Position numbers and translations under genes: made by a program. Positions 1,501 through 61,459 of a stretch of DNA of 64,000 bases are shown in pieces. The DNA lies in the IMG/VR virus record IMGVR_UViG_3300025018_000093; one strand, 5' to 3'. Position 1 is the stretch's first letter. Each line of letters begins with the position of its first letter. Source of the stretch: a virus. Its lineage: Duplodnaviria > Caudoviricetes. The notes beneath the pieces were generated by a model that was not told where the DNA came from, ran no database searches, and was given only the letters and a program-made list of their open reading frames with translations.

Positions 1501-2073
1501 ATGTCGGAACTTCGAAAAAAAGTCATTCGTCTTGCTTATCATAGGCCAGACTTGAGGGCGGACCTTCTCCCCCTCCTTTCTCGGCAGGACAAGATGGCGT
1601 TACAGCTTCCTAACGGGAAGATCGTCCTGGATAAGCTCAACTCCTTCCTGCGGAACCAGATGACTGCCATCGCGCAGTACATGGTCCACTCCGAGATGTG
1701 CGCCAACTGGGGATACTCGAAGCTAGCGGCTGCTGGGAAGGCGCGCGCCATGACGGAGATGCGTCATGCGGAAGCTTTGATCGAACGCATCATTTTCCTG
1801 GAGGGTACTCCCATTGTGGGTCTCCTCAATGAGGTGTTCACGGGCAAGATTGTTCCCGAGCAGCTTCAGCTCGACCTCGAAGCAGAACAGAAAGGGATCG
1901 CCGGGTACAACGAAGGCATCGCGATATGCAACCGCGTCCAAGATCACGGAACCCGGCAACTCCTGGAAGCCAATCTGAAGGATGAGGAAGGTCACCACGA
2001 CTGGCTGGCCTCCCAGCTAGACCAGCTCAATCAGATGGGCGTCGGAAACTACCTGGCAGCTCAGATGGGCTAG
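1501..2073 (+). CDS. bfr: bacterioferritin with an N-terminal ~30-aa tag
   Basis: LNSFLRNQMTAIAQYMVHSEM, EMRHAE (heme Met), DLEAE, DEEGHHDWL, QMGVGNYLAAQM; ATG 1501 after GGAGGAAGTGGAG. Confidence 0.95.
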   Translation: MSELRKKVIRLAYHRPDLRADLLPLLSRQDKMALQLPNGKIVLDKLNSFLRNQMTAIAQYMVHSEMCANWGYSKLAAAGKARAMTEMRHAEALIERIIFLEGTPIVGLLNEVFTGKIVPEQLQLDLEAEQKGIAGYNEGIAICNRVQDHGTRQLLEANLKDEEGHHDWLASQLDQLNQMGVGNYLAAQMG

Positions 2074-2312
2074 CCCCGGTACTTTGACTTGTCGACGTCG
2101 GCATAATGGTAGACGGATGCCTCTCTATCAAGGGGAGATTCCTCCCCCATGATGCACAGGAAGGCTCTTTCCGCCCAAGCTGCATGCTCCGTCTCTTTTT
2201 CCTTTGTGAGTGCCACCTCAAACTCCTTGAACAAGTCTGTGAGCTTCTCTTGGACAGAAGGCATGAGTCTCTCCAGCAATAGCTCCCCCAAGCAGGTGTG
2301 ATAATGATTCAA
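2070..2312 (-). CDS. hypothetical protein (start may be 2264)
   Basis: 80-aa ORF filling the gap, converging on bfr. Confidence 0.45.
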   Translation of the reverse strand: MNHYHTCLGELLLERLMPSVQEKLTDLFKEFEVALTKEKETEHAAWAERAFLCIMGEESPLDREASVYHYADVDKSKYRG

Positions 2313-2329
2313 TTGCCACCTACCAGTAG
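2302..2329 (+). promoter_or_regulatory. candidate phage promoter motif TAR-N5-CWAT-N13-TAG
   Basis: TAA tgatt CAAT tgccacctaccag TAG, 25 bp upstream of ATG 2355. Confidence 0.4.
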
Positions 2330-2354
2330 GTTGTAACTAGCTCTGGAAAAGACT

Positions 2355-3053
2355 ATGCCTCGTTCGCTCAAGTCTCGTATCGTTCGCCTTGCCCACAGCA
2401 ATCCCGTGTTACGTGCCCCGCTTCTGGAGATTCTGGAAAGAGTAGCCACGGGTCGGGTAGATGATGAGTTCGAGCGTCTTCTGCACACCCCGCAGTGGTG
2501 GGAGGATAGGGAGGCTACAGACCGCTTGGCGCGTCTGATTTCTCGGAGGTCCCTTTCCGAGCCACAGCTCCGGCAAATCTTCAAGGGACTCCACCGAAAG
2601 ATAGATCCCGCAGAGGCAAATCAGCTCCGCTCCATCTTGGACTGGCCTGCCATCCCTTCCTACGTGCTGACAGAGGAGCAGGCCGATACAATTGTGGAAG
2701 CTCCTTGGTTGTATCCGCACATGGAATCTTGGAAAGGGTACGAGGTGACGGTCTACTATGAGGTCTGGACACACGAGGACCTGGACGTTGGGGATACCGA
2801 TGACAGGGGTGAAGAGTACGAGAAGGAAGCTTTCAGCCTAGAGGAAGCTGTGGATCTCCTGGACAGCTACAGTTGGGAAGATTGGTCCGCTTCTACCCCT
2901 CGCTCTGGTGACTGGTTGGTCTCTGAGGGACAGCAGGATTACCGTGACGGGTCCATAACGTACTATCATGGCTTCGTACAAAGGCTGGACAAGAAAGACC
3001 TCACACGCGAGGAAATCCAGTACCTCTCTAAGAAGTTAGGGGTGCGAGTATGA
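2355..3053 (+). CDS. acidic hypothetical protein with N-terminal RLAH tag
   Basis: 232-aa ORF beginning MPRSLKSRIVRLAHSNPVLRAPLLEIL. Confidence 0.8.
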   Translation: MPRSLKSRIVRLAHSNPVLRAPLLEILERVATGRVDDEFERLLHTPQWWEDREATDRLARLISRRSLSEPQLRQIFKGLHRKIDPAEANQLRSILDWPAIPSYVLTEEQADTIVEAPWLYPHMESWKGYEVTVYYEVWTHEDLDVGDTDDRGEEYEKEAFSLEEAVDLLDSYSWEDWSASTPRSGDWLVSEGQQDYRDGSITYYHGFVQRLDKKDLTREEIQYLSKKLGVRV

Positions 3054-3142
3054 ATGGAAGCAGGAAAGTCCACGGTGAGAACTTGAACGGGGCGCGGTTG
3101 CTTCTACAGCAAGCCAGCGTAGCTACAAAAAAAGGAAAGAGC

Positions 3143-3637
3143 ATGCACACACTTCGCAGTAAGCTTATTCGCCTAGCCTATGCAAACCCAGGAAAGCTCA
3201 GAGATAGCTTGTTGCCTATTCTCGCGAGTAGCCTCAGAAAACACTACGTAGTGTACGGTACGCATCGAAGGGCAAATACACCCCCCGTAACGTTTCGAAA
3301 GACGCAACAGGGTGAGTGGGTCATCATGATGCCTGAAAGCTATGCCCGAGTAGGGGACACGGTGGCAGTCACTAAGAAGGACGGGCACACCAAGAATGTG
3401 CAGATTGTTCGAATTCGACGACCCTTCAATGTGCAAGGCAAGCCCTACGTATACTGTGAGTTCAAAGATTCCTCTGCACGCCCCGTGTCAGCACCGTCAA
3501 TGTCTGTAGCAATTTGTGATAATTGTGGGGCACGTATCAGTGGTTCAGGAGAAGAGCGTGTAGATTCCTCCGGTATCCGAGGGATTGTGTGTCGAAATTG
3601 TGCACGTGCGAGTCGGTATGAACTGAGCTTTGCCTAA
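3143..3637 (+). CDS. hypothetical protein: RLAY tag, small beta domain, C-terminal zinc ribbon
   Basis: ATG 3143 after AAAGGAAAG; MHTLRSKLIRLAYANPGKLRDSLLPIL; GDTVAVTKKDG; CDNC...CRNC. Confidence 0.75.
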   Translation: MHTLRSKLIRLAYANPGKLRDSLLPILASSLRKHYVVYGTHRRANTPPVTFRKTQQGEWVIMMPESYARVGDTVAVTKKDGHTKNVQIVRIRRPFNVQGKPYVYCEFKDSSARPVSAPSMSVAICDNCGARISGSGEERVDSSGIRGIVCRNCARASRYELSFA

Positions 3638-3706
3638 TTTGAGCCGGGATACAGTAGTGCTGGTAATGAGAGAAGATTGCTAGGTTCCGGGGAGTCATGG
3701 GTGGTC

Positions 3707-4435
3707 ATGAATACAGACCAAATGGCGAAGCGAATCTTGACCCGAGTTTTGCGGGCGAGTTCCGTGTCCAGCTCTGACCTCCGGGACGCACTGAACCACG
3801 TATCGGATCTGGCTGGGCGCACACTTCGGGTGGCGGACTTTGATCTCTCCCGCCCTCAGCTTCTCCCCCTGCAGAAGCTCTACGACTATGATGACATCAG
3901 TGCCTGGGCAGAGTGGACTGCGGGAGAGCTTCTGGAATACGAAGAGGACGAGAGAGAAGAAGAGGTAGCTAGATTCCGGGGAGCCAACTGGGCTCGACGC
4001 GCTCTCAAGTGGACCCCTCAGAACATGCCTCCTATCATCGTGGTGATACCGCGAGACAAAGGGACGGAGATCGGGGACGGTCGCGGTCGAGTATCCCTGG
4101 CGCTAGGACTCGGGTGGGACAAGATCCCCACCGTCATCGCAACAGAGCGTTGGAACCAAGACCTTTCGTGGACCCCGGCACGAAATACCGTCTACTGCGC
4201 TGAGACAGCGGCGGGCCGTGGTGGTCCGCCCCTACCTAGAGGGTGTCATGCCTACAATTCACGACTTGTTACCGAAGTGAGGAGAGGGTGTCATGACCAC
4301 TGCAACGTTGCTTCTGAACGCTTCCTACGAGCCCTTACGGGTGATCCCCTGGCACAAGGCGATCACTCTTGCTTTGCTTCAGAAGGCAGACATCCTGGAG
4401 AGCTACGAGGGCAAGGTTATCTGTGCAACCAATGA
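3707..4435 (+). CDS. ParB/Srx-like domain protein; the C-terminal ~90 aa look like run-on
   Basis: MPPIIVV...EIGDGRGRVSLA...IPTVI motif; the tail overlaps the HNH gene by 143 bp. Confidence 0.55.
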   Translation: MNTDQMAKRILTRVLRASSVSSSDLRDALNHVSDLAGRTLRVADFDLSRPQLLPLQKLYDYDDISAWAEWTAGELLEYEEDEREEEVARFRGANWARRALKWTPQNMPPIIVVIPRDKGTEIGDGRGRVSLALGLGWDKIPTVIATERWNQDLSWTPARNTVYCAETAAGRGGPPLPRGCHAYNSRLVTEVRRGCHDHCNVASERFLRALTGDPLAQGDHSCFASEGRHPGELRGQGYLCNQ

Positions 4436-4790
4436 CGTCTACGCCTGGCCAGCGGTAGCACGTCTTCGTTCTCGTGTGTCCTGGAGGGACCGTGGTGTAC
4501 GCTTCAGCCGTACAAACGTGTACAAGCGGGATGACTTTACTTGTCAGTTCTGTGGGAAGAGACATGCTCCGGCTCAGTTGACGTTCGACCACGTTCTGCC
4601 GAAGTCCCAGGGAGGACCAACATCCTGGACGAATATCGTGACGGCATGTCTCTCTTGCAACCAGCGTAAGGGAGCCAAGACACCCAAGCAAGCGGGAATG
4701 GCACTACTGCGGGAACCACGTGAGCCGACGTGGTTCCAGAAGGACCTTGTGGCCTACCAGGAAGTGTGGGAGCCCTACCTCTGGACCTAG
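4293..4790 (+). CDS. HNH endonuclease (McrA-like)
   Basis: LLLNASYEPL, NVYKRDDFTCQFCG, LTFDHVLPKSQGG, NIVTACLSCNQRKG. Confidence 0.95.
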   Translation: MTTATLLLNASYEPLRVIPWHKAITLALLQKADILESYEGKVICATNDVYAWPAVARLRSRVSWRDRGVRFSRTNVYKRDDFTCQFCGKRHAPAQLTFDHVLPKSQGGPTSWTNIVTACLSCNQRKGAKTPKQAGMALLREPREPTWFQKDLVAYQEVWEPYLWT

Positions 4791-4881
4791 CCTCCCAACT
4801 CGCCCGCAAGGGCAACCTGGGCCTCTTGAACTCACAGACGCACATGGTAGTATGTGAATAGCTGGACTTCGGTCCAGCCGC

Positions 4882-5068
4882 CCCAGGGGAGCCTGACGGA
4901 TAGGCGCTCGCAAACGGAACGAGTACTGTAAAAGGGTATCGAGACGTTGACATGACGTAACATGCGGAATTTGCGGAGGCACCGAATGGCTCTCAGCAGG
5001 GTCTGTAGGGAAGCACGTTTGGCCGCGTGTTTACTCGATATAAGTGGGTTCGACTCCCATCCCTGGGA
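4882..5068 (+). ncRNA. tRNA-like RNA with a ~120-nt structured insert at the variable-arm position
   Basis: acceptor CCCAGGG(4882)/CCCTGGG(5061)+A; D arm GCCT-GACGGAT-AGGC; arm CTCGC-AAACGGA-ACGAG; T arm GTGGG-TTCGACT-CCCAT; insert closed by TATCGAG/CTCGATA. Confidence 0.7.
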
Positions 5069-5092
5069 TAGGTTACTATGGAAGGCCAAGCT

Positions 5093-5614
5093 CTACTTCT
5101 GGGCTTGGCCTTCCTGCTCGCGCTTGGACCGCAACTGGTGGAGAACCCGCAGGAGGGTTTCTACAGGTTGCCATAGTCCATACACGGACTCATAGAAGCT
5201 GTCTGTGATACGTCGCACATGATCGTATCTGCTTGAAATGATCCAGTCCTGCTTCGTTTTTGTGGGAAGCCACATCAAAGCACCTGTCTGCTGTGAGACA
5301 CACAGAACGAGTTGCGGGACAGGGCGCTTCCCCTCCCATCCAGATACGGTATCGATTAGAATCGTCGGGTGCGGGAAGTCTTCCGGGGTGTGGAAAACTA
5401 CATTCCGGCTCTTCACCTCCATTAGCACACCCTCGCACAAGACGTCGCTAAGCTGTTTGTATCTCCCAGCATCCGCAATGGTGGCGCGAATACCCTGAGG
5501 CAGTACTTGCGTGTCCAACCCCTGGAGCTGGAAGAACAGAGCAACGTACCTCTCTCAGGCATGTCCCGTTTTGCACTCCCGAATGAACAAGGCGTCGTTT
5601 TCAAACCAATCCAC
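5093..5614 (-). pseudogene. PD-(D/E)xK nuclease-like gene with an in-frame TGA at codon 20
   Basis: GGAGG then GTG 5614: MDWFENDALFIRECKTGHA*ERYVALFFQLQGL...SDVLCEGVLMEVKSR. Confidence 0.65.
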
Positions 5615-5685
5615 AGCAGCACCTCCGAGGAGCATACGCAGTAGCTTTCCGATCTGTCCTGCACAGTGCTTGGAGAGCTGCCCGG

Positions 5686-5713
5686 TAAGTCTTCTATGAG
5701 TGCGGCTTCATAG
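5686..5713 (+). promoter_or_regulatory. candidate phage promoter motif TAR-N5-CWAT-N13-TAG
   Basis: TAA gtctt CTAT gagtgcggcttca TAG upstream of ATG 5757. Confidence 0.4.
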
Positions 5714-5756
5714 CGTTCGCAATGCCACCGGATCAGGTGGAACCTGGAGTACATTC

Positions 5757-6080
5757 ATGCCTACTGACTTCAACGAAATCTCGCAGTGGATGCAAGTGCT
5801 TGAAGCACACAACCTCTTGCACGAGGTACAGGCGCGCCCCCACATCTGGGGAAAGCTCAACCAAGCTCTTGCTGAGGAGGACTTGGAAGGTTTGCAGGAA
5901 GCCCTTGAGAAGGCAGACTTCTATGGACTCCTGACCAACGTCTGGACTTCTCGCTTCGGTGACAAGTTCCAAAAGGCTATGCGTCTTGCCGGGGATCAAT
6001 CTCTCCGCCGAAAGATCATTCGTCTGGCGCATAGGAAACCTGAGCTACGGCCACACTTGTTACCCCTACTGATCAAGTAG
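5757..6080 (+). CDS. small helical protein with a C-terminal RLAH tag
   Basis: ends ...SLRRKIIRLAHRKPELRPHLLPLLIK*. Confidence 0.8.
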   Translation: MPTDFNEISQWMQVLEAHNLLHEVQARPHIWGKLNQALAEEDLEGLQEALEKADFYGLLTNVWTSRFGDKFQKAMRLAGDQSLRRKIIRLAHRKPELRPHLLPLLIK

Positions 6081-12647: not shown

Positions 12648-14282
12648 ATGAAACCTCGGAAACAGAAATCAGCGCGGGCTGACGTGACGCCCGTTCGTCA
12701 GCGTACTCAATTTTCGTGCATGGCCGCCTCCATGGCAATGGCTCTTCGTGCACTCGGCATCGATTGTACCGAGGATGAGACGGCAGACGTAATGGGTGTG
12801 CGACCAATGCGAGGGGCAACCTGGGAGGATGCGCTTGCTGCTGCACAGCACTATGGCTGCCGTGCGACGTTATGCGTTCCCGCAACACTCCAGCAAGTCA
12901 AGGAGTGGACGGATGCCGGAGACCCCGTACTGATTGCATGGAACCCTGAAAACAGAGAGTGGTCCCATGCCTCTGTGATCTTCGACGTCACAGAAGAACA
13001 TACCGTTCATGTGGCTGATCCGAACATCCCAGACCCAGACGAAACAGTTCGTGTTGTTCCTCGAAAGGACTTTTACAGCAAGTGGTCAGAGAAGTGGCCT
13101 CGGTACCTCGTTCGGCGCCCTGCCATGCGAATCACGAGAGAAATCACACCTGACGGGAGACAGGTTATGGCTGGCAGCCGAAAAGCAGATGAAGTCTCGG
13201 ATGATCTCCTGGAAGCCCTTCTTACAGGCGTAGGTGACCTTCACAAGATCATTCTCGCACAAGATGACGGAGGTAAGATCGTGAGTGAGGGACTGCTGAG
13301 TTTGAACTCCTTTGCGAGTGTTCTGCGAGAAGCTAACCGACAAGCCAAGTTCGAGAAGGGAAAGGATATGTCCGCGCAGGACGTAGCCGACTATCTCTCG
13401 GAGCACGGGGCTCCCGAGGCTGCGAAGCGATGGATGGAAGAGCACGAGAAGAACAAGGACAACTTCGACAAGAAGGCCAGCCCTCTTCTCAACGCAGATG
13501 ACTACGCTCGTCTCTTGCAAGCCAAGTTCGAGAAGGGGAAGGAAATGTCTGCCCAGGACGTGGCAGACTACCTCTCGGAGCATGGGGCTCCTGAAGCTGC
13601 GAAGCGGTGGATGGAAGAGCACGAGAAGAACAAGGACAACTTCGACAAGAAGTCCACTTCGCGACAAGCCAAGTTTGAGAAGGGGAAGGAAATGTCTGCC
13701 CAGGACGTGGCGGACTACCTCTCGGAACATGGGGCTCCTGAGGCTGCAAAACGGTGGATGGAAGAGCACGAGAAGAACAAGAACAAGTTCGATAAGAAGT
13801 CCTCAAGGGGCCGTGGGCGATTGACGGCGCACTACCCTCAGGGTATCCCCGGAGTGCACAAGCAAGCCATGGAAGGAAGAGATGAGGACGTCATCTCGAA
13901 GGATCTTCTTTTAGCTACCTTCAGGGACCTGGCAGAGGAGTCCGCTGCGGACTTGGCCGCTGTCCTGGCGAATGCCAAGTCCGATGCGGACGTGCAGACG
14001 GCTCTCCGTTACGCGGCCGAGCTGCTGGATGGCTTCGGAGTCGAGTCCATCAACGCCGAGAACTCTTGGGACAACTTCTTCGGGGAAGCTGTGGCTTTGT
14101 ATGTTAACACAGGGGACACCTTCAACACTACGGTCCTCTATGACACACAAGAGAGCATGTTCTACCTGACGAGCTGGGGTGTCTGGGTAGAGAAGTTTGA
14201 ACAACAAGGTGGAAGAGTCAAAGCGGCCCATTGGGATGAGATCCCTGCTTCGGTCGAAGACTGGCTAACCTGGAAGGAGTAG
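12648..14282 (+). CDS. modular protein: C39-like cysteine peptidase, three 45-aa repeats, C-terminal small domain
   Basis: QRTQFSCMAAS (Q,C), WSHASV (H), VADPN (D); repeats QAKFEKGK..NFDKK; YVNTGDTFNTTVLYD. Confidence 0.8.
   Translation: MKPRKQKSARADVTPVRQRTQFSCMAASMAMALRALGIDCTEDETADVMGVRPMRGATWEDALAAAQHYGCRATLCVPATLQQVKEWTDAGDPVLIAWNPENREWSHASVIFDVTEEHTVHVADPNIPDPDETVRVVPRKDFYSKWSEKWPRYLVRRPAMRITREITPDGRQVMAGSRKADEVSDDLLEALLTGVGDLHKIILAQDDGGKIVSEGLLSLNSFASVLREANRQAKFEKGKDMSAQDVADYLSEHGAPEAAKRWMEEHEKNKDNFDKKASPLLNADDYARLLQAKFEKGKEMSAQDVADYLSEHGAPEAAKRWMEEHEKNKDNFDKKSTSRQAKFEKGKEMSAQDVADYLSEHGAPEAAKRWMEEHEKNKNKFDKKSSRGRGRLTAHYPQGIPGVHKQAMEGRDEDVISKDLLLATFRDLAEESAADLAAVLANAKSDADVQTALRYAAELLDGFGVESINAENSWDNFFGEAVALYVNTGDTFNTTVLYDTQESMFYLTSWGVWVEKFEQQGGRVKAAHWDEIPASVEDWLTWKE
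13341..13799 (+). repeat. three ~135-bp intragenic repeats (13341-13475, 13518-13652, 13665-13799)
   Basis: near-identical 45-aa modules carrying synonymous differences. Confidence 0.95.
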
Positions 14283-40900: not shown

Positions 40901-40971
40901 GAGCTTCGTTAAGTTGCCATAGTAGCTGACAAACTGTACCTGTTTACATAGATTGTGAACAGGAGGTGCTT

Positions 40972-51524: not shown

Positions 51525-52733
51525 ATGGCTCAGGGACCGCTACAGATTGATGCTATCCGGGTGGAGCCCGGATTCTTTGGAACTCGCACCATCGACCGGG
51601 ACAGCTCGGGTTCTCTCCGTTTCACGGACCCCGATGTACCAGGTGGAATTACGTTGGCAGGGCTTGCGGGACTCCGGTCAGTGGCCTCCATCCTGGTAGT
51701 GGGGAAAGGGGGTCCCGGTGCACAGTACGACACTCTGCAAGCAGCTGTGGATGCTGTACCACCGACGTCTAGCTTGACGGCGCCCACTCTCATCCTGGTT
51801 GGTCCTGGGTTGTATCAGGAGAATCTGGTCATCGAGAAGGATGGGGTGTGGATTGTAGGGTTGGGGGGTGTGGTCATCGAGGCTGCCGTTGCGGACCCTA
51901 CTCTTACCATCCAAGCATCTGTGACAGTTACTCCTCAGTGGTGTCGTCTCCAGAACCTACGGGTTCTGAATGCTAATGCTGGAGAGTCGTGCGTTTCTGT
52001 GCTAGGTGGCGTGGGAAGTGAGGTAGGTGCCCAGGAGATCAGCCTGATCGACTGTGACTTGGTGGCCAGCGGGGCGAGTTCCATACAGGTTCTGGCAGAC
52101 ACCATCAACAACCTTCGGGTGATGGGTGGGACTTTCGAGGGGAGCGCTTCCACATCTCTTGTGAGGGCGACGAATTGTCATCAGGTTTCCCTGTCTTCCA
52201 TTGAGAAGCTGTTCAATCTGCAACTCGACTACAACACAGCAAATCCCACACCCGATCAGGTGGGGTGCTCCTACACAGCTAAGAACTCCACGCTCTGGGG
52301 AAACATCCTCTCCACCCTCATCGGGACAGGAACTTTGGAGCTGGGGTCGCTGCTGGCGCCGACAACTGCGGGTGACCTGACTGTCAATGGGGATGGCTCT
52401 GGGAGCTTCCGTGCGGCCGGATGCCGGCTTCGGAACCTATCCCTGAATGGTTCTGCCCCCCTCACACTTGCGAGCTGTACACGGGGCTCTGCTGCGGGAT
52501 CTGGCACTCTGGCTGAGGACATCCAAGAGGGTACAGCATCCTTTTCGGCGGCTAGTAGCAAATCCGTAGTCTTCGGAGTACCGCAACCCGATGCCAACTA
52601 CACGGTTCATCCTGAGACAGAGTTGACATCTGTGATCAGCGTCACAAGTAAGACTGCCGCAGGTTTTACGCTGGGTTTCAGTACCCCGCAGACTACCACG
52701 GTGAGCTACAAGATTCTGCGGAGGGCTTTGTAG
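51525..52733 (+). CDS. pectin-lyase-like beta-helix virion/fibre protein
   Basis: VGKGGPGAQYDTLQAAVDA, ILVGPGLYQENLVI, beta-helix repeats. Confidence 0.7.
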   Translation: MAQGPLQIDAIRVEPGFFGTRTIDRDSSGSLRFTDPDVPGGITLAGLAGLRSVASILVVGKGGPGAQYDTLQAAVDAVPPTSSLTAPTLILVGPGLYQENLVIEKDGVWIVGLGGVVIEAAVADPTLTIQASVTVTPQWCRLQNLRVLNANAGESCVSVLGGVGSEVGAQEISLIDCDLVASGASSIQVLADTINNLRVMGGTFEGSASTSLVRATNCHQVSLSSIEKLFNLQLDYNTANPTPDQVGCSYTAKNSTLWGNILSTLIGTGTLELGSLLAPTTAGDLTVNGDGSGSFRAAGCRLRNLSLNGSAPLTLASCTRGSAAGSGTLAEDIQEGTASFSAASSKSVVFGVPQPDANYTVHPETELTSVISVTSKTAAGFTLGFSTPQTTTVSYKILRRAL

Positions 52734-52734
52734 G

Positions 52735-53625
52735 ATGCTGACGACACAGGAATCAGCTCGAAGAGTTCTGGATCGTTACGTCTTGCGGACAGTTGTGCGC
52801 GGGATCTGCGCTTCAGGGGACTTTCGTACACGCCTATCGTCTTTGCAGGACCTTACTCCAGACGTGATGGAGGCATTCGGAGAGGCCTTCCTTCTTTCGA
52901 TGGTTCGCCCCAGCACAAGGGTTGCTCTTCTTGGAGGGCTCGGCGGGAAAATCAAGAAGCTCTGGGATCTTTTCAAGAAGGCTCCTCAGCTTTGGACGCA
53001 GATTAAAGAGTTCCTGGGTATCCAGGGGTTGACTGACATCCCCAAGCGGATCAAGGAGTGGGCGAAGAAGGGGATGGACGCCTTGAAGAAGGGTCTGCAT
53101 GCAGTGATCGTGCAGAACCCTGTCGCGGCCTTGTATGTTGTTCCGCATAAGAAGATGCCGGGCGTGACGAACATGCTGACCCAGATCAGGAATGCACACC
53201 CTAAGTTGCAAGCTATCCTGGATAAGGTCCACACCAGCATTGTGGATCCCATAGACAAGGTCCTTGCCGAGAGCAAGCTCCTGCGCACGGCAGCTCGCCC
53301 TGTGTTGGCCGCGATTTTCATCTGGGTCTGGCTCCATGTGGTAGAGATATCCTGGGACTTGCACGACTTAGTTCGTGGGTTCACGGGGGCTATTACTTTT
53401 GGGGAACTTCTGCAGTCTCTTCCTGAGTCTGGTGTCGGTTTGCTGCTTTCAGTTTTGTTTCCAGGGCTGGGGACATTCGCGTTACTCCCCCTCACGCTAA
53501 TTGCTCGTGTCCTCTATTTGTTGGCGAAGAAGGTCCTTGTTTGGGTGAAGGGTAAGGGGTTCCTTGTTGACTGGACCAAACTCGGCAAGCCGGAGCAAGG
53601 TCGTGAGCTGGTTCCTGTTTTCTAG
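52735..53625 (+). CDS. membrane protein
   Basis: two hydrophobic C-terminal segments. Confidence 0.7.
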   Translation: MLTTQESARRVLDRYVLRTVVRGICASGDFRTRLSSLQDLTPDVMEAFGEAFLLSMVRPSTRVALLGGLGGKIKKLWDLFKKAPQLWTQIKEFLGIQGLTDIPKRIKEWAKKGMDALKKGLHAVIVQNPVAALYVVPHKKMPGVTNMLTQIRNAHPKLQAILDKVHTSIVDPIDKVLAESKLLRTAARPVLAAIFIWVWLHVVEISWDLHDLVRGFTGAITFGELLQSLPESGVGLLLSVLFPGLGTFALLPLTLIARVLYLLAKKVLVWVKGKGFLVDWTKLGKPEQGRELVPVF

Positions 53626-53636
53626 GGGAAGTATCG

Positions 53637-54224
53637 ATGAAAGACCTATGGGAACGTGTAGCAGAGGGTGACGCTCTATTTGGAGAGGGCACCACGATTG
53701 ACTCTGCCCTAGGCGAGGACGGTGCCTATCTACGGTTTGCTGCCTCTTTGCCACCAGAGAGGGCCAAGAGGAAGAACATGCGGAACGAAGATTGGCTCGG
53801 AAAAAGGCCAGCAGCAGGAACCCGTGTCGCGTTTGCGGATACACTGGAAGCTATCCTGACTTACCCCGACTTCCCGTCCCCCGGGATTGGAAGCACCAAG
53901 GCAGAGGGCAGCATCATTGCTGTGCGTACCAGTTCCGGCGACACGACCTCCAGAGGTGGCCGTGTCTACGTGCAGTGGGATGATGGAAAGGTACGCGCGG
54001 TTGCGCATGAACACCTTCGTCCTGCCTCGGGTCGTCTTCGCATGGCCAACAGCTTCCGCAGAAAGGTGGCTGGTCTGGGTGACCTTACGGACTTCCTTCG
54101 CAGCAGCGAAACAGACCTGGTGCACAAATCCACAAAGGATCTGTGGAGCCTGCGAAAGGAAGGGGAGCAGTACGTCATCGAGCGTATGTTCGATGCCAGC
54201 GGGGATCCCCTGAAGGGAGTCTAA
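53637..54224 (+). CDS. hypothetical protein (SH3-like segment)
   Basis: GRVYVQWDDGKV. Confidence 0.7.
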   Translation: MKDLWERVAEGDALFGEGTTIDSALGEDGAYLRFAASLPPERAKRKNMRNEDWLGKRPAAGTRVAFADTLEAILTYPDFPSPGIGSTKAEGSIIAVRTSSGDTTSRGGRVYVQWDDGKVRAVAHEHLRPASGRLRMANSFRRKVAGLGDLTDFLRSSETDLVHKSTKDLWSLRKEGEQYVIERMFDASGDPLKGV

Positions 54225-54225
54225 C

Positions 54226-54831
54226 ATGAAGAAGCCTGATGCCAGAAAAGTGATTGCGGCATACTTGGCGGGTTTGACTTCCGTTGAGGGACTTTGGCAC
54301 CTCAATCGAGGACACCTAGCGCTGCAAGAGTTGCAACGCCGTCCGAAGACAGCAGGAGAAGTCCGTCACGTCAAGGACAACTCGGGGGATGCATCCACCT
54401 GGGCGTACTCTACGCACAATCCTGTTGACCGAGAGATGGACCCCAAGTTTGACTGGGATCCTCGGATGGCGGAGGACCTGGCTTTGGTTTTGCGCTCCAC
54501 CGTGGCTTCAATGGGTCACGCGATCAGCGCACAGAACAAGTTTGCGCAGATCAAATCTCGTAACGTGAGTCCAGATGGTCGTCTTGGGGGGCGTGGGTAT
54601 GTCCAGCGTGTGGCTGACATGCGGCGTCAATACTTCAACATCGTGGAGGCGCTCTCCTCTTTGCAAGACACCCTGTATGATGAAGTGCACGCTCCGCACT
54701 GGGCTATTTTCAGTCGCGAGATGGATGAGGACACACAGGAAGTTCTGGAGCAGACAGACGACATGCGAAAGGATCCTAGCGGGTGGGCCGACGAGGAGCT
54801 TGACGAGGATCTTGAGGAGGAGTTGGCCTGA
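54226..54831 (+). CDS. hypothetical protein
   Basis: coupled ORF, acidic tail. Confidence 0.75.
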   Translation: MKKPDARKVIAAYLAGLTSVEGLWHLNRGHLALQELQRRPKTAGEVRHVKDNSGDASTWAYSTHNPVDREMDPKFDWDPRMAEDLALVLRSTVASMGHAISAQNKFAQIKSRNVSPDGRLGGRGYVQRVADMRRQYFNIVEALSSLQDTLYDEVHAPHWAIFSREMDEDTQEVLEQTDDMRKDPSGWADEELDEDLEEELA

Positions 54832-56903
54832 TGTCCAAGCACAAGAAAAGAAGTGGCGACGCCTCTCGTCTCCCCAGTGATGACTTCACCTGGACTGAGG
54901 GCAATAGCTTTGGTCTGGATACCTTCCTGTTCGACATGGAAGACGGAGAGGGTGTGGCGCAATCCGCCAGGTTACCCCAAACCAAGGGGTACTCTCGTCT
55001 TCCCGGTACGGAGCAGGTTGAGGAAAGCTCTTTTAGTTCCGTTCCCCTGGGACCTTCCGTTTACACGCATGCCCCGGGGAAGAAGCACGGAAAGAGGCAT
55101 GGGAGTGAGTTTGACGGGGAGGACCGCCTTGGTATTCGAGGATTGTTTGCTGCGGATGCGCATGCGGATGAGTCTGTTCGCCTCCCAGCGTTGGATTGGC
55201 TAGAGCTGGAGACGGACCAGGAGAAGCAGGATCCCGCAAGACTCCCTAAGAATCCCGTGGACAGGTCTATCCGGGAGCTGGAGGAGGCATGGGGTGTTCG
55301 CCATCGCACAGATGGTGTGGTCACCTATGACGAGAATGTCCAAATGGCGGGTGACTTCCGCTTGGGTGAGAACAACCTCGACCTGGACGCGGCTCGCTAT
55401 GCACGTTCGATGGAGGTGGACCCTGCGGAGAAGCATCGTTTCACGGCATCCGACTTGAAGGTGGTTGTCGCGGAGGCGATGCGAAGGTCCGCAGCTGGCT
55501 ATCCTATCCGGGAGGTTCTTCTCCACACGGCTCGTTTGCTTGAAGATGAGGCATACCGGGTCAAGGAGTCCATGCAGGCTCTCGTATCGGAGCATGGACT
55601 TGCAGGAAACGTCTACGTGCGTGCCTCTGCATACCCAGGATGCCACAACGGGGAGTGGACGGAGCATGTGAATAAGCATGCGAAGTCTGCCCGTTATGTG
55701 ATGGCCGCAGAGAAGTGTGCGGATTGTTCGCACAATCGCCAAGGTTCCTGCGCACTACTTCAACGGCGTTTGGTTTCCAGTGTGCCTTGGGAGGAAGCTC
55801 GGGACGTCTACCTACCACGGTTCCTGGCAGAGGGTGTCAAGGTTGCTTCTAAGGGGGATCCCAAGGAAGCCTTGCGCAAGGCCTTTCAATCCAAGGCTGT
55901 CAAGAAAAGTCCGGACACGTATTTCCCCTCAGAGAACTCTTCCGGGGAGGAGAGGCTGGACGCAAAGCTCAAGTCTGCTCGTGACCAGCAAGCTTTCGTT
56001 GGGATACAGGACGTCAAACTCCGACAGCAGGCTCGTCGCCGGGATAAGCTCGCAGCCTATCTAGGCAAGCTCAAGGCAGCGGGTCTCCTGACTGCAAAGG
56101 AAGCTAAGACTCTTCTCCGTGAAGGCGGGGAGATGGAGGATATCAAGTCGACGGTGACCGCCTTGATTGCCCGAAAGGACATTAAGAGTGGGTCTCACGA
56201 CACAGGGGAGCGCGCGACCTACATTGGGCAACCGAAAGAGGTGGTGCGAAAGCTCACGGCTCACGAGAAGGATATCCATAAGATTGCCAAAAAAGCAGGT
56301 GTTCGCCCTGCTGAGGTAAATGGGATGATTCGCTGGGTTCGCGAGGAATTGAATGCAGGGTGGATGGGAAGAGAGCTGGATGGCCTCCTCCGGGCTCGTT
56401 TTGCAAAGCCTCTCCTCAAGGCAGCCAGCGGTATGATTCAGAACCTTCGTGATCAGCACGAAGGACTGGCTGGGCAGCTCTACATTGATGCTGCTACTTA
56501 CGGGGACAAGAGGGGTGTGAAGGGGTGTGAAGAGGGTGCTTTGAAGCACCGCACCAATGACATCCCCTATGTGCTGCGGATGGCCGCGTGCGATTCGTGT
56601 GTGCACTGCAACCAGCATGAAAAGTGCAACAAGTATGGCAAGGAGCTGGTGTCCCTGGAGGACTTCAACAGTAAGGACTTGCGGTCCTACCAGCAGGAGT
56701 CCATCCGCATGGCGGATGCTCCAGACGCCGAGAAGACAGCTTCCATTTTCGCTCCTGTGGAGGATCCTGCGTCGGAGTGGGGGTTGCGCAACGATAACTT
56801 GGAGAACTTTTCCTACTACGGGGAAGAGGAAGATCCAGACGAGATTGGTGATCTTGGCAGCATCGCTTTCAGTGGTATGGACTTGCCAGAGGAGTGGGGT
56901 TGA
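54831..56903 (+). CDS. large protein with two homologous four-cysteine modules
   Basis: HGLAGNVY...C...CADC...C and EGLAGQLY...C...CDSC...C. Confidence 0.8.
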   Translation: MSKHKKRSGDASRLPSDDFTWTEGNSFGLDTFLFDMEDGEGVAQSARLPQTKGYSRLPGTEQVEESSFSSVPLGPSVYTHAPGKKHGKRHGSEFDGEDRLGIRGLFAADAHADESVRLPALDWLELETDQEKQDPARLPKNPVDRSIRELEEAWGVRHRTDGVVTYDENVQMAGDFRLGENNLDLDAARYARSMEVDPAEKHRFTASDLKVVVAEAMRRSAAGYPIREVLLHTARLLEDEAYRVKESMQALVSEHGLAGNVYVRASAYPGCHNGEWTEHVNKHAKSARYVMAAEKCADCSHNRQGSCALLQRRLVSSVPWEEARDVYLPRFLAEGVKVASKGDPKEALRKAFQSKAVKKSPDTYFPSENSSGEERLDAKLKSARDQQAFVGIQDVKLRQQARRRDKLAAYLGKLKAAGLLTAKEAKTLLREGGEMEDIKSTVTALIARKDIKSGSHDTGERATYIGQPKEVVRKLTAHEKDIHKIAKKAGVRPAEVNGMIRWVREELNAGWMGRELDGLLRARFAKPLLKAASGMIQNLRDQHEGLAGQLYIDAATYGDKRGVKGCEEGALKHRTNDIPYVLRMAACDSCVHCNQHEKCNKYGKELVSLEDFNSKDLRSYQQESIRMADAPDAEKTASIFAPVEDPASEWGLRNDNLENFSYYGEEEDPDEIGDLGSIAFSGMDLPEEWG

Positions 56904-56908
56904 GCAGT

Positions 56909-57499
56909 ATGCTAAAGCACACAGATCAGCAGAAATCACTTCTCCGGGAGGTGCTTACGGATATGCTTTCTCTCCTGCAGGCACAGCGATGGAACTACCA
57001 GACGTCGCACTGGCAGAGCCAGGGAGAGCCCTTCTATGGTGACCACCTCATGTTCCAGCGTCTCTATGAGAGTCTGGATGCGGACATCGATGGTTTGGCC
57101 GAGAAGATCCTCGGGCTTCTGGTGATGCCCGGGGATGATGCCTATCCCTTTGACAACACCACGCAAGCTACGAAGCTCTCCCAATGGCTGGAGAGTTGGA
57201 ACGTCTTTGACTGCCCCTACAAGCGTTCTCTCCAGAGCGAGCGCGACATGCAGACACTTTGGGCGAGGGGCTACGAGGTCTTGAAAGACACGGGGTCTCT
57301 GTCCTTGGGGTTAGATGACTGGGTGATGAGCACTGCGAGTGCCCATGAGACCAACCTGTATCTTCTCCAGCAGCGCATGCATGCGCAGGATCACATGCGC
57401 AAGGCGTCTCAGGACTTGACCCGAGCTTGGTATCTCAAGCCGTCTTCCAGTCGTCGTGGGCGAGAGTTCCATGCGGCGGAAGATAAGGAGTCTGATTGA
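56909..57499 (+). CDS. Dps/ferritin-like protein
   Basis: SHWQSQGEPFYGDHLMFQRLYESLDADIDGLAEK, HETNLY. Confidence 0.8.
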   Translation: MLKHTDQQKSLLREVLTDMLSLLQAQRWNYQTSHWQSQGEPFYGDHLMFQRLYESLDADIDGLAEKILGLLVMPGDDAYPFDNTTQATKLSQWLESWNVFDCPYKRSLQSERDMQTLWARGYEVLKDTGSLSLGLDDWVMSTASAHETNLYLLQQRMHAQDHMRKASQDLTRAWYLKPSSSRRGREFHAAEDKESD

Positions 57500-59882
57500 C
57501 GTAGCGGCCAAACTGCGCTCGAAAAAGTGGTCGCACCCGGAGACGGGGAACCAGGTTGAGTTTTCTTCGCTGCCCTCTGAGGAGCAGGAGAGGTTGCGTG
57601 CGCAGGCTATGGCCGCTGCCGAGAAAGAGGAAGCCAAGGGTGGTGAGGGGACTGCCGAGAAAGAGGAAGCCAAGGGTGGTGAGGGGGCTCCCGCGTCGGA
57701 GTCGCCCAATAGTCAATCTCCTGAGGACTTGGAACAGGAGATGTCAGAGCAGAAGGTTCAGCATGTTGTCGAGCTGTCCGAGAATGATCGAAAGCTCTAT
57801 GACAGGATGCTCCAGGAACCCGCTGCGAAGGGGAGTGTGAAGGAACGCCTCTTGGGGAGCTTGAAGCGTCTACAGAACTTGCTCCCTGATGAGGTGATGA
57901 AGCCCATCCAGAAGTATATGCTCCAAAGAGAGCTTCGAAAGTCGGATGCGGATGCTGCCAAGGAGCAGGAGGCGCAGCAGGAGGCTGTGGAGAAGGCTCT
58001 CCAGGCATGGGAGGGTCGTTTCCAGGAGGGTATGGCGGGGGCTCTGGAAGAGGAGGGTGTGAACGCATCTGAGATGACCATTGAGGATATCAAGGGGAAG
58101 TTCGAGGATGCGAAGCTTCGTCAAGAGTTTGCAGATGCCTTCATTGATGATGCGCCCCCAGAAGTGAAGAAGCTGGGTCCACCCTCATTCCTTAAGTTCA
58201 TGCTCACGCACATCCTGGAGAGTATGTTCGAGTGGGCTGGTGCGCCGGAAGGCCATGAGTCTGCAATGGACAAGATGAAGCGCTATGAGGATTACAGCCA
58301 TGAGTTTGACAAGAGTAAGACCTTGGCTATGGAGTCTGAGCAAGAGCTGAAGCTGGCAGAGAAGGATCTGAATGCGCTAGGGAAGCGTCCTACTGTGGGC
58401 AAAGAGCCGCCCGATCCCGGAAGAGAACCCCAGAGAGGAACCCCTGAATGGGATGCTTGGGCAAAGGCAAGTGATACGCTGAAATCTTGGGAGAAGAGTG
58501 TAAAGAAGCAGGAAGACTGGGACGCTAAGAAGGATGTGGTCATTGAGAAGAAGAAGGCTCTCAATGATGCCATGCGTGGTTTGCTGGACATGACTGAGGA
58601 CCAGCAGTTGGGTCCTGGGGACAAGTTGGAAGAGCGGAAACGAGAACGTGAGCAGCAGGAGAAAGAGAAGCCCATCGCGAAGAAAGAGAGAGAACTTCCC
58701 TTCAAGAGTGTCTCGGAGCTTATCCAAAGTCTGGAGCAGGCCCAGGAGGAACTAAGGGAGGAGGCTGAGCAGGAGTCCTCCGATGATCTACCGGATGACG
58801 TGTTTGCGGATGATGATACGGATGTGGAAGAACCCGAGGTGACTTCCAAGACGCCCAAGGCCCCCAAGACGCCTAAGGCCCCCAAGACGCCTAAGGCCCC
58901 CAAGACCCCCGAAGAGACCCCCGAAGAGACCCCCGAAGGAGAGGAAGCGGAAGAGGCTGCCGAGATGGCAGATCCAGGGACGACTTCGGAGAGAAAGAAA
59001 GAACTGGCAAAACGGAAACGCGAGCGAGATCGTGCAAAGTACGTGGCCAAGAAGTATGACCTGGATCAGGGTGCAGTGGAAGCTATGCGCGTGTTCAAAC
59101 GACAGCTCTCTGAGATGGAGACGGAAGAGAAGCCTCCAGCGGCATCCAAGTCCAAGCCCAAGTCCAAGTACCCGGAGAAGTCCAAGTCCCCGGAGAAGTC
59201 CCCTGCCAAGCAGAAGGTGAAACCCCCGCAAACAGATGCACAGAAGATGCAGGAGTTCATGCGTAATGCCGATCCCGACATGAAGAAGCGCATGAAGGAC
59301 ATGACACCCAAGGAGTTCATGGCAATGTTGGCAGTCATCTCTGAAGAGGAAGAAGGGAACAAGCCCGAGACGTTGCGATTCGCCCGGTATCTCCAGGGTG
59401 ATTGGATACGGTGGGCTGAGGATTCTGGGGACGCGAATGGAATGTCGGAGTTCTTTGCGGGAATCCAGGAGGGGCTCAAGGAGCCCTCGGATGAGGTCCT
59501 TGCTTCGACGTTGAAAGCAATGGCGGATGACGCAGAGAAGAGCCAGAAGAAGGCTAGTCGAGAGCTGGAGCGGCGCTGGTTCCGTCTGGGAGCAACAGCC
59601 GAGGGGTACTTCTTTGATAACCCCGAAAAGCGAGAAGTGCGTGAGTTTGCAGAGTCTCACGCAATGGGCAACAGCACGCGCAGAGAGCGTGCTGAGGGGG
59701 CTCCTCCAACGGTAGAAGAAATTGATCATGCTCCCGGTGGCGAAGCTGTTTCCACACTCAATCGCTACCTCATTCAGACAGAAGAGCCTGTCCCTACAAG
59801 TGTTCCGCAGGATCGTGATGATCTTCCCAAGCACCCTAAAATGGCTGCTCGCCAGAGACTGACACGAGGGAGAATCCGATGA
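57471..59882 (+). CDS. large charged low-complexity protein
   Basis: KWSHPETGNQVEFSSLP; AEKEEAKGGEG x2; PKTPKA repeats. Confidence 0.8.
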   Translation: MRRKIRSLIDVAAKLRSKKWSHPETGNQVEFSSLPSEEQERLRAQAMAAAEKEEAKGGEGTAEKEEAKGGEGAPASESPNSQSPEDLEQEMSEQKVQHVVELSENDRKLYDRMLQEPAAKGSVKERLLGSLKRLQNLLPDEVMKPIQKYMLQRELRKSDADAAKEQEAQQEAVEKALQAWEGRFQEGMAGALEEEGVNASEMTIEDIKGKFEDAKLRQEFADAFIDDAPPEVKKLGPPSFLKFMLTHILESMFEWAGAPEGHESAMDKMKRYEDYSHEFDKSKTLAMESEQELKLAEKDLNALGKRPTVGKEPPDPGREPQRGTPEWDAWAKASDTLKSWEKSVKKQEDWDAKKDVVIEKKKALNDAMRGLLDMTEDQQLGPGDKLEERKREREQQEKEKPIAKKERELPFKSVSELIQSLEQAQEELREEAEQESSDDLPDDVFADDDTDVEEPEVTSKTPKAPKTPKAPKTPKAPKTPEETPEETPEGEEAEEAAEMADPGTTSERKKELAKRKRERDRAKYVAKKYDLDQGAVEAMRVFKRQLSEMETEEKPPAASKSKPKSKYPEKSKSPEKSPAKQKVKPPQTDAQKMQEFMRNADPDMKKRMKDMTPKEFMAMLAVISEEEEGNKPETLRFARYLQGDWIRWAEDSGDANGMSEFFAGIQEGLKEPSDEVLASTLKAMADDAEKSQKKASRELERRWFRLGATAEGYFFDNPEKREVREFAESHAMGNSTRRERAEGAPPTVEEIDHAPGGEAVSTLNRYLIQTEEPVPTSVPQDRDDLPKHPKMAARQRLTRGRIR

Positions 59883-60706
59883 GCCACAGGTACTACACAA
59901 CCCCACCTTTCACGGTACTGGTGGCGCATCCCCGTCGAAAAGCGTTTCGCAACCAGATTGTGCGTGACAATTCAGGACAGGCCCAGGTATCCCTCCTGAC
60001 TGGAGATCCCACTGCCTCCTCGGGTAGCATCACAGTCTTGGACGCAGGGTTTCTGGTGACAGCGCTTCCCGCAAGGGGAGGGCTCACGCTAACCCCACCT
60101 CTGACAGTAGGGGTTGTCGTCACTATCAATGGCAATACTCTCACTGGGGTTGCAGGGGCAAGAACACCGGGGGCCAATAACTTTCAAGTTACAGCTTCGG
60201 ATGTGGCGGCGGAGATTGTCGCTGCTATCAATGATGCTGCTAATGCCTTTAAGACAGACGTGGTTGCATGCCGTACGGGTAACTTCGTTGGCTTGACCGC
60301 TGTTACAGCGGGAGCTGCTGGGAATAGCCTTACGCTTGCGACTAGCGACCCGACGGAGGTTAGTCTGTCTGGCGACACACTCCTGGGTGGTGGACAGTCC
60401 GCTGGACAGTCTGTTTTTCGTCTTGGTCCCTACACTTTGGTCACAGGACTGCACTGGTCTCCCGTGGTGGGAAATATCAACAGCTCCGCCACGGCTCTGG
60501 CAGCGGCGATCAATCGACTTCAGTGTTACAGTGCTACGGCTGCGGGTCCCGTGGTCAATATCGTGGGTCCCCCTGGGGTACAGGATGCGGAAGGTTTGGT
60601 CTTCTCCGTCAGCTATGACGGAGTGGTTGAGAACTTTGCCGTGAGTCCCACCAATGGATTCCTAGGTGGGGGAGCACCCAACATGGGTCCACCTGAGATA
60701 CTCTGA
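59879..60706 (+). CDS. virion structural protein (tail-sheath-like insert domains)
   Basis: AAEIVAAIND / ATALAAAIN repeats, LTAVTAGAAGNSLTL. Confidence 0.6.
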   Translation: MSHRYYTTPPFTVLVAHPRRKAFRNQIVRDNSGQAQVSLLTGDPTASSGSITVLDAGFLVTALPARGGLTLTPPLTVGVVVTINGNTLTGVAGARTPGANNFQVTASDVAAEIVAAINDAANAFKTDVVACRTGNFVGLTAVTAGAAGNSLTLATSDPTEVSLSGDTLLGGGQSAGQSVFRLGPYTLVTGLHWSPVVGNINSSATALAAAINRLQCYSATAAGPVVNIVGPPGVQDAEGLVFSVSYDGVVENFAVSPTNGFLGGGAPNMGPPEIL

Positions 60707-60718
60707 TGAGGTGTTGCC

Positions 60719-61459
60719 ATGACGAAGTTGAAGGGAAAGACTCAGAAACTGAGTAACTATGTTGTTCCAGATGCCCCACAGTCCCCCAGGGATAAGGAAC
60801 TCATCCTTGCGGAGCTACCCCGTAACACAAGGGTGTACGTCAAAGAAGAGGGTGGGAAGCTCAAGTACAAGGAGTTGTCGCAGGTTCGCGACTCCGACAC
60901 GCTTATCTACAAGAAGAACGGGGATCCCGTGCTTATGCGGGGTCGCCCAGGTCGCCTGTCGGAGGACCGGACCAAACTCGAAGTTGCTAACAGTGAAGTA
61001 GCTGAAATCAACCGACAGAGGGATGACTATCTTGCGCAAGACAGTCTGGTTCAGGCAGCAAGGATCAACTCGGATGGTCCGGATGTACTGACAGAAACGA
61101 TCATTCGATTGACGGAGGTAGCCTCCACAATCTCGTTTGAGCGTCAGGAGGCACATCGAACAGGAACCCCAACAAGCATCATTGCACGCCGAGAGGTAGC
61201 TGCTCTGGTGGCTGTTCGAGATGCTTCCCTCAAGCGTATCGACCAGCGCTTGCGCAAGCAGGAGATTGACCTGGAAAGTTTGGCTTTCCGCAATCTCTTT
61301 GTCTACATGGTCAGGACATTCACTGAGGCAATGGATGCCACTGGAATACCAGCAACGGAGATAGACTCCGTTGTATCCTACCTCTCGAAGGAAGTGGACA
61401 CGGAAGAGTGGAAAAACTCGGCTCTCAAGTCGATGGTAGGCCCCTCTTCGGTTCATTGA
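60719..61459 (+). CDS. hypothetical protein, possibly the terminase small subunit
   Basis: position directly upstream of the terminase large subunit; helical C-terminus. Confidence 0.35.
   Translation: MTKLKGKTQKLSNYVVPDAPQSPRDKELILAELPRNTRVYVKEEGGKLKYKELSQVRDSDTLIYKKNGDPVLMRGRPGRLSEDRTKLEVANSEVAEINRQRDDYLAQDSLVQAARINSDGPDVLTETIIRLTEVASTISFERQEAHRTGTPTSIIARREVAALVAVRDASLKRIDQRLRKQEIDLESLAFRNLFVYMVRTFTEAMDATGIPATEIDSVVSYLSKEVDTEEWKNSALKSMVGPSSVH

Follow-up and report, generated by a model that had tools for sequence, protein, structure and literature searches.

Four otherwise unrelated proteins encoded between positions 1501 and 6080 of a 64,000-nucleotide stretch of phage DNA (IMG/VR virus record IMGVR_UViG_3300025018_000093; Duplodnaviria, Caudoviricetes) carry the same short peptide, here called the tag; the whole stretch is referred to as the window. 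The tag is a modular element located at either terminus of its carriers or inside them. It is conserved at the protein level, and it is specific to viruses and to one phage clade. A junction motif, [KR]-x-A, is strongly enriched between the tag and its carrier and is common to proteins of the head module. In the reading favored here, to which a probability of about 0.5 is given, the tag serves for capsid loading and is removed by the prohead protease in an uncultured clade of huge phages whose capsid is related to that of phage G. The destination of the tag, its binding partner, the cleavage, and the ejection of the cargo are the steps that we infer.

The four tagged genes

The earlier note on this DNA, made from the sequence alone, proposed that four proteins share a peptide that can sit at either terminus. 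All four copies are present at the positions given there. When a hidden Markov model (HMM) built from them is run against the six-frame translation of the window, they are returned with E-values from 2e-16 to 6e-15, and the next match has an E-value of 0.8. The carriers are as follows:

1501..2073, plus strand: bacterioferritin gene; N-terminal tag at 1510-1578; K-M-A at 1591-1599 ends a short linker
2355..3053, plus strand: 232-aa protein; N-terminal tag at 2367-2435, followed by R-V-A at 2439-2447 (tag HMM E 8e-16)
3143..3637, plus strand: 164-aa protein; N-terminal tag at 3152-3223, with one extra Gly (tag HMM E 2e-16)
5760..6080, plus strand: small helical protein of about 106 aa; C-terminal tag at 6003-6071, ending in LLPLLIK-stop (tag HMM E 6e-15)

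The bodies of the four proteins, with the tags removed, have no mutual similarity (best BLASTP E 2.7), as had been claimed. Any two tags have 11-15 of 23 residues in common, with the same codon at only 2-4 of them. So few common codons, also expected from the earlier note, mean that the conservation is held at the protein level and does not reflect a recent DNA repeat; the origin of the tag as such a repeat or as a mobile DNA module is ruled out by the scrambled synonymous sites.

The open reading frame 1501-2073 encodes a bacterioferritin, an iron-storage enzyme of bacterial origin. Its residues 42-189 match TIGR00754 at the equivalog level (146.1 bits with a cut-off of 125.55), and the match to Pfam Ferritin has an E-value of 4e-30. 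The gene is recorded on a 261-kb contig, and GGAGG is found about 10 nt 5′ of the ATG at 1501. Among about 2,590 canonical bacterioferritins of 154-165 aa, none has an equivalent of the first 40 residues, and homologues of this length align to 75-81% of the query, which bears out the suggestion that the tag sits on a well-known enzyme normally devoid of it. The K-M-A triplet is placed immediately ahead of the point where the canonical sequence starts. Of two longer orthologues, P0277 and P0278, one bears two tandem tag variants and the other a single degenerate variant. Despite this divergence of the tags, K-x-A-L abutting the start of the normal enzyme is retained in all three tagged bacterioferritins.

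The other three carriers match no Pfam, NCBIfam, or PHROG family above threshold. A CxxC...CxxC segment is located in the C-terminal part of the 164-aa protein. In the fourth protein, the tag stops two residues short of the stop codon, and the ATG at 5760 is more likely to be the start than the GTG at 5700 (5700-6080).

Sequence, predicted structure, and distribution of the tag

The tag comprises about 25 residues with the consensus M-[ST]-x-L-R-S-K-[LVI]-I-R-L-A-H-x-[NKQ]-P-E-L-R-[PAS]-[HDQ]-L-L-P-L-L-K-[EKT]-A-A. More than 90% of the copies keep the two Arg, the two Pro, and the Leu positions. Its net charge is about +4, and it forms amphipathic helices with conserved hydrophobic faces and conserved Arg, Lys, and His positions. 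In an AlphaFold2 model based on a 71-row alignment, residues 4-14 and 16-35 are helical, with a break at the residue preceding the first Pro and a mean predicted local distance difference test (pLDDT) score of 78. According to this model, the tag would be a small basic two-helix unit, in keeping with the helix-Pro-helix shape anticipated earlier.

The family extends far beyond the window. A pattern derived from the four tags detects 82 confirmed sites at 77 loci in IMG/VR, often several per contig, on contigs reaching 485 kb. An HMM iterated on the 77 viral loci gives 134 matches, 123 of them distinct, and five related contigs of 170-485 kb bear 8-15 tags each; the HMM scan suggested by the earlier note thus finds only four copies in the window and many in related phages. 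When a 34-position profile was compared with 1.84 billion cluster representatives, 4,185 proteins were recovered at E<=1e-3 and 941 at E<=1e-10. A single-tag tblastn search of 50,697 phage records had one match, the uncultured 485-kb record LR745208.1. The idea of a portable address label is therefore strongly supported: the module is seen only in viruses, and its carriers, unrelated proteins numbering in the thousands, have it at one of their two ends or between domains.

It had also been considered that the motif might be a generic helix found equally in cellular proteins. Against this, a degenerate DNA pattern of the tag has only three sites in 596 Gb of prokaryote genomes (one genome per species), where about 0.03 matches are expected by chance according to our own estimate. 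All three sites lie on contigs of metagenome-assembled genomes (MAGs). Each of these contigs has a canonical tag, and on one of them a second tag occurs together with a gene homologous to one of a tag-bearing phage contig, so that at least one is clearly phage-derived. Two of the three (L079, L080) are binned as Acidobacteria or Terriglobia.

The tag alone has no match in Pfam (E<=10), NCBIfam, or PHROGs, and the only hit of its profile among PDB sequences is a designed repeat protein (E 1). No description of it was found in the literature searched by motif strings and topic words. Its identity with LRV or HEAT-type repeats is likewise not indicated, as tags taken alone have no Pfam match at E<=10; LRV matches do occur in two multi-tag proteins, at positions not assigned to tags. 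In a more distant lineage rich in Lys and Glu, two proteins (P0024 and P0045, each about 1,000 aa long) have three degenerate tag-like repeats clustered near both ends, so the tag may also exist in tandem arrays.

Placement of the tag and the junction motif

Among the 123 viral tags, 106 (about 86%) are N-terminal, 9 are C-terminal, and 8 are internal. The 150 best database matches, which are biased to multi-copy proteins, contain 323 copies, 113 of them N-terminal, 54 C-terminal, and 156 internal. A single protein may have up to seven tags separated by domain-sized or disordered spacers. N-terminal tags have Met three residues before the first Leu, and C-terminal tags end at LLPLL(K) followed by 0-4 residues.

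The flanks of the tag depend on where the carrier lies. N-terminal and internal tags run on as K-x-A-[AG], while K-x-A-[ST] precedes internal and C-terminal tags; since the motif is seen both before and after tags, [KR]-x-A separates tag and cargo no matter which of the two comes first. The sequence [KR]-x-A follows directly after 44% of the tags, compared with 1.3% elsewhere in the same proteins, and [KR]-x-A-[SAT] is found in the four positions preceding 31% of internal and C-terminal tags, compared with 0.28% per position elsewhere. Overall, [KR]xA is 35-110 times more common at the tag/cargo junction than in other parts of the same proteins.

The same motif recurs in the head module of tag-bearing phages. 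It is conserved at four sites in a 214-aa scaffold-like protein, one of them immediately before the C-terminal FGLF, at seven sites in a 432-aa head protein, and at three sites in the protease. Terminase and portal have one conserved site each, and control patterns give 0-3. The earlier suggestion that [KR]xA might be a cleavage site thus gains statistical support from the junction enrichment, the retention in orthologues, and the sites in head proteins, while the cutting itself is what we infer from them.

Cargo and modules shared with head proteins

The Pfam families found among tagged proteins include ART-PolyVal, RelA_SpoT, 2H-SAK, Pentapeptide, DUF2958, DUF5710, DUF7007, and GNAT. RelA/SpoT, 2H, and ADP-ribosyltransferase (ART) domains are typical of the phage polyvalent proteins, which are thought to be packaged and injected, and Alt of phage T4 is cited as a packaged, injected ADP-ribosyltransferase (PMC5512222). 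In addition, proteomics of the phage G particle has detected a ferritin-like protein (PMC12484599).

Small proteins of the tag-X-tag type and the scaffold-like head protein have a common segment, FDP..IG..PGP..GEFTQQE..L..Q..G.L, with 40-49% identity and E-values of 1e-8 to 1e-11; scaffold paralogues are among the tagged proteins. Other tagged proteins have a 45-aa module in common with the topoisomerase polyprotein encoded next to the portal. An AlphaFold2 model of one tag-X-tag protein (P0033, 123 aa, 12-row alignment), made to see if its two tags pack against each other, has a mean pLDDT of 56 and a predicted template modeling score of 0.33.

Short modules reappear in varying combinations in tagged and head-module proteins. 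Three of them are FDP..IG..PGP..GEFTQQE, GCEKLPEGPMRDNCEKKK, and F..WVKGK.F.NP.T.NKV.F.SLP...Q.KIR..W, the last one also being found in the portal-adjacent topoisomerase polyprotein. The recurring modules are located in L083:9070-9666, L084:8029-8664, and L081:10559-11266, as well as in P0033, P0027, P0114, and P0039.

The phage, its head module, and the neighborhood of tagged genes

Genes for a chaperonin, ribonucleotide reductase, RecD- and RecA-like proteins, a clamp loader, and TnpB are present in the window, as are three tRNAs. The window stops inside the gene for the large terminase subunit, and capsid, scaffold, and protease genes are therefore described from relatives. The features of the window that bear on the neighborhood of tagged genes are as follows:

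4293..4790, plus strand: free-standing, untagged HNH endonuclease within the tagged-gene cluster (Pfam HNH_5 E 5e-17)
51525..61459, plus strand: conserved co-directional block upstream of the terminase, without tags in the window (BLASTP synteny with contig L086)
56894-57499: untagged Dps-like gene within this block, the second gene of the ferritin superfamily in the window (phrog_3636 "DNA binding protein", E 8e-9)
61468..63999, plus strand: large terminase subunit, truncated at the window's 3′ edge; the head module begins here and extends past the window (PHROG matches; phrog_17415 E 5e-27)

Terminases of five large tag-bearing contigs are 53-58% identical to that of the window and are followed by portal, protease, and capsid genes. 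In three contigs, the order of the head module is terminase, portal (phrog_16240), HAD/topoisomerase-IB polyprotein, scaffold-like protein with a charged tail, zinc-ribbon protein, head maturation protease (phrog_18299, E 2e-14), 432-aa protein, 226-aa protein, and the major capsid protein of 292 aa (phrog_2522). The capsid protein matches gp27 of phage G (PDB 6wkk) with an E-value of 4e-62. Among these tag-bearing phages it is 93% identical, compared with 70-75% for terminase and portal, and one capsid gene is present at an identity of at least 89% in 12 of 22 tag-bearing contigs, all of which are fragments. The nearest cultivated relatives of this capsid belong to the Tunturiibacter phage Tunturi_5 (PP885688.1; 47.7%) and to phage G (38.7%). 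The host of Tunturi_5 is an acidobacterium, which, together with the MAG bins, gives a weak hint at hosts among Acidobacteriota.

Variable slots of the terminase-portal-protease-capsid operon hold tagged genes, one directly after the portal gene (contig G002) and another two genes before the capsid gene (G003). Contig L086 is syntenic with positions 47.5-64 kb of the window according to BLASTP, and in L086 the block directly upstream of the terminase contains five tagged genes with ten tags. One of them encodes a protein of 1,780 aa with an N-terminal GNAT domain and five tags (P0001, L086:10001-15343). The gene for P0001 lies between homologues of the window genes 53637-54224 and 54226-54831, i.e., in a variable insertion slot of an otherwise syntenic operon. 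A homologue of the Dps-like gene occupies the same slot in L086 as in the window.

Upstream of tagged genes, a short element, CTAT[CTA], often in the form CCTAT[CT]CC, was noticed 8-45 nt 5′ of 29% of the N-terminally tagged genes (L001-L077), compared with 8% of 445 other genes. It is also present about 20 nt upstream of scaffold-like head genes (L084:8009, L081:10538, L084:6064), and it was not seen upstream of the four tagged genes of the window. CTAT[CTA] may be a clade-specific promoter element; as evidence for the function of the tag, a shared promoter was set aside because it is too weak and too untimed.

Several other features deserve mention. The large terminases of the window and of G001:C1:83422-85863 contain some 450 additional residues (128-576 of the query) that the terminases of four related contigs lack. 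The inserted part, which could be an intein or an inserted domain, matches a PHROG of the helicase type and a PHROG of unknown function. Two further untagged genes of the window are one for a protein of 544 aa whose N-terminal domain is a C39-type peptidase (12648-14282) and a TnpB/Cas12f-like gene (40955-42616).

A proposed model of capsid loading

According to the proposed model, the tag would dock its carrier onto a conserved internal component of the procapsid, either the inner face of the capsid or the scaffold core. A co-fold of the capsid protein (L083:14036-14914, 55-row alignment) with the tag (71-row alignment) scored 0.00, with a partner pLDDT of 42-44, and weighs on neither side. 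The head maturation protease would then cut at [KR]-x-A-[SA] between tag and cargo, which would free the cargo inside the head and split multi-tag polyproteins into separate domains. Virions would carry the cargo along, and a large part of it would be delivered to the next host with the DNA. In ferritin-family cages, the N-termini face outwards, so that 24 tags would be exposed on a tagged bacterioferritin 24-mer; a cage of this kind could be docked in a very large head, but it could not pass the tail.

Extended to the whole clade, the model is proposed more tentatively and may or may not hold. Here, a two-helix tag placed at either end or between domains would, together with a protease junction, constitute a clade-wide loading system. 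In each genome, it would serve a changing set of at least a dozen enzymes and polyproteins, which would be packed into the capsid and set free in the next host. Among them would be ADP-ribosyltransferases, alarmone synthetase-like and phosphoesterase domains, and ferritin. As to the earlier claim that the tag is an address label directing proteins into the procapsid or another phage compartment, its first half, the label, stands; the procapsid as the destination is argued from cargo types, gene neighborhood, and clade distribution.

A number of observations speak against capsid loading. Most tagged genes are scattered in clusters outside the head module, and the four tagged genes of the window are about 55 kb away from the terminase gene. 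In the portal, protease, scaffold-like, and capsid proteins themselves, neither the tag nor a weak tag-like motif was found. In phage G, no tag was recognized in a check made with single-tag tblastn only, and Tunturi_5 has neither a single-tag tblastn match nor a match to the tag profile at E<=1. The K-x-A flanks could be helix caps or a binding surface rather than cleavage sites. Finally, an assembled bacterioferritin 24-mer is too big to exit through the tail; if packaged, it would stay in the head or would have to be loaded unassembled.

Alternative explanations

Some of these observations are what would be expected if the tag docked to a target other than the capsid, such as a cytoplasmic phage assembly or compartment (a replication or assembly factory) or a hub protein of the host, with the cargo acting in the producing cell. 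A modular, strictly conserved tag fits a single partner of any kind, and most tagged genes are found in accessory clusters away from the head genes. However, the RecA, RecD, ribonucleotide reductase, clamp loader, and chaperonin proteins of the window are all untagged, and three lines of evidence point to the head: the junction motif in the scaffold-like and 432-aa proteins, the scaffold paralogues among tagged proteins, and the tagged genes in the head operon. Docking outside the capsid is regarded as unlikely, albeit as an explanation that has to be taken seriously. An import signal for a DNA-containing compartment is not likely either, as the tag is missing from the replication and transcription enzymes of the window.

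The tag might also be a self-associating sticker whose helical bundles cross-link the carriers into a multi-protein body, possibly the internal core of the head. Proteins with 2-7 tags and disordered or domain-sized spacers are numerous, small tag-X-tag proteins exist, and the hydrophobic faces of the tag are conserved, all of which would suit such a role. The invariance of the Arg and Pro positions is nevertheless more in line with one specific partner than with generic bundling, and self-association as the function of the tag is rather improbable.

A still smaller chance is left for a recognition signal of a protease or chaperone (a degron, or a signal for a chaperonin or a Clp adaptor) by which the timing of turnover or folding would be set for accessory proteins. 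Degrons are typically terminal, and the phage does encode a chaperonin, but internal copies, K-x-A flanks on the cargo side, and modules shared with head proteins would not be expected of such a signal. To our knowledge, terminal degrons are much smaller than a structured two-helix unit of 25 residues.

The weakest candidate, a basic helix pair by which proteins would be held at the cell membrane or on phage DNA, agrees with the net charge of about +4 and the amphipathic helices but is scarcely credible, given that the tag has no similarity to DNA-binding families in Pfam, NCBIfam, or PDB, that DNA-bound proteins, as far as we know, cannot pass the portal during packaging, and that the tag is too poor in hydrophobic residues for a signal peptide and occurs at C-termini as well.

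Comparison with known systems

In functional terms, the tag is closest to the capsid targeting sequence (CTS) of phage T4, to the helix pair of the P22 scaffold, and to the encapsulin peptides, and it is a member of none of these groups. The T4 CTS, present in IPI-III and Alt, is a sequence of about 10 residues that is found only at the N-terminus, provides loading into the prohead core, and is cut at L/I-x-E. Like the CTS, the tag is a short peptide on unrelated proteins, with ART cargo and with proposed loading into the prohead core and removal by the protease. Unlike the CTS, it has about 25 residues and two helices, and its copies are N-terminal, C-terminal, and internal. The junction also differs, being [KR]-x-A-[SA] instead of L/I-x-E; L-K-E-A is present in some copies only and in another register. 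There is no evident sequence similarity between the two.

The scaffolding protein of P22 binds coat protein by a C-terminal helix-loop-helix, which has been used to load foreign cargo. As modeled, the tag resembles this domain, which acts at the inner face of an HK97-fold coat and can bring in passengers, in being a small basic two-helix unit. The difference is that the P22 domain belongs to one scaffold protein, whereas the tag is spread over many genes; the search of its profile against PDB gave no such match.

Encapsulin cargo-loading peptides are short, have an extended shape, and belong to cellular genomes, where the shell gene is their neighbor. An overview of encapsulins is available (PMC8346489). 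The likeness lies in a terminal peptide on a ferritin-like protein and in an HK97-fold shell as the proposed destination. In contrast to the encapsulin peptides, the tag is helical and is not found in cellular genomes, and the shell here is a true phage capsid (phrog_2522; gp27 of phage G) accompanied by terminase, portal, and head maturation protease.

In phage HK97, a C-terminal segment of the maturation protease is sufficient for its encapsidation in the procapsid. The tag is similar to this signal in being a terminal segment with an HK97-fold procapsid as the destination, which in our case is proposed, but the HK97 signal belongs to one protein, while the tag is found in many genes and is unrelated in sequence.

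A resemblance to polyvalent proteins (Iyer et al. 2017, PMC5512222) is seen in the ART, RelA/SpoT, 2H, and GNAT domains within multi-domain proteins linked to virion genes: effector domains of the phage type are present, and multi-tag proteins are encoded in the terminase-proximal operon. Polyvalent proteins have been presented as fusions in which a built-in metallopeptidase domain does the processing, and a repeated address tag has not been described for them (PMC5512222). Here, in contrast, there are single effectors as well as polyproteins punctuated by a repeated tag with a protease-type junction. No zincin-like metallopeptidase is among the top Pfam tallies of the tagged proteins, individual proteins not having been examined for it.

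Significance

If capsid loading is the true function, the tag would mark the set of proteins that virions of an entire group of uncultured huge phages deliver, and thousands of hypothetical proteins would become one functional class that acts at the moment of infection. Many separate effectors would then be packaged without being fused into giant proteins, and the tag would represent a compact natural, programmable packaging signal for foreign proteins in a large HK97-fold shell. Even if the destination turns out to be different, the presence of a strictly conserved docking peptide, seen only in viruses, in more than 4,000 protein clusters implies a single hub partner.

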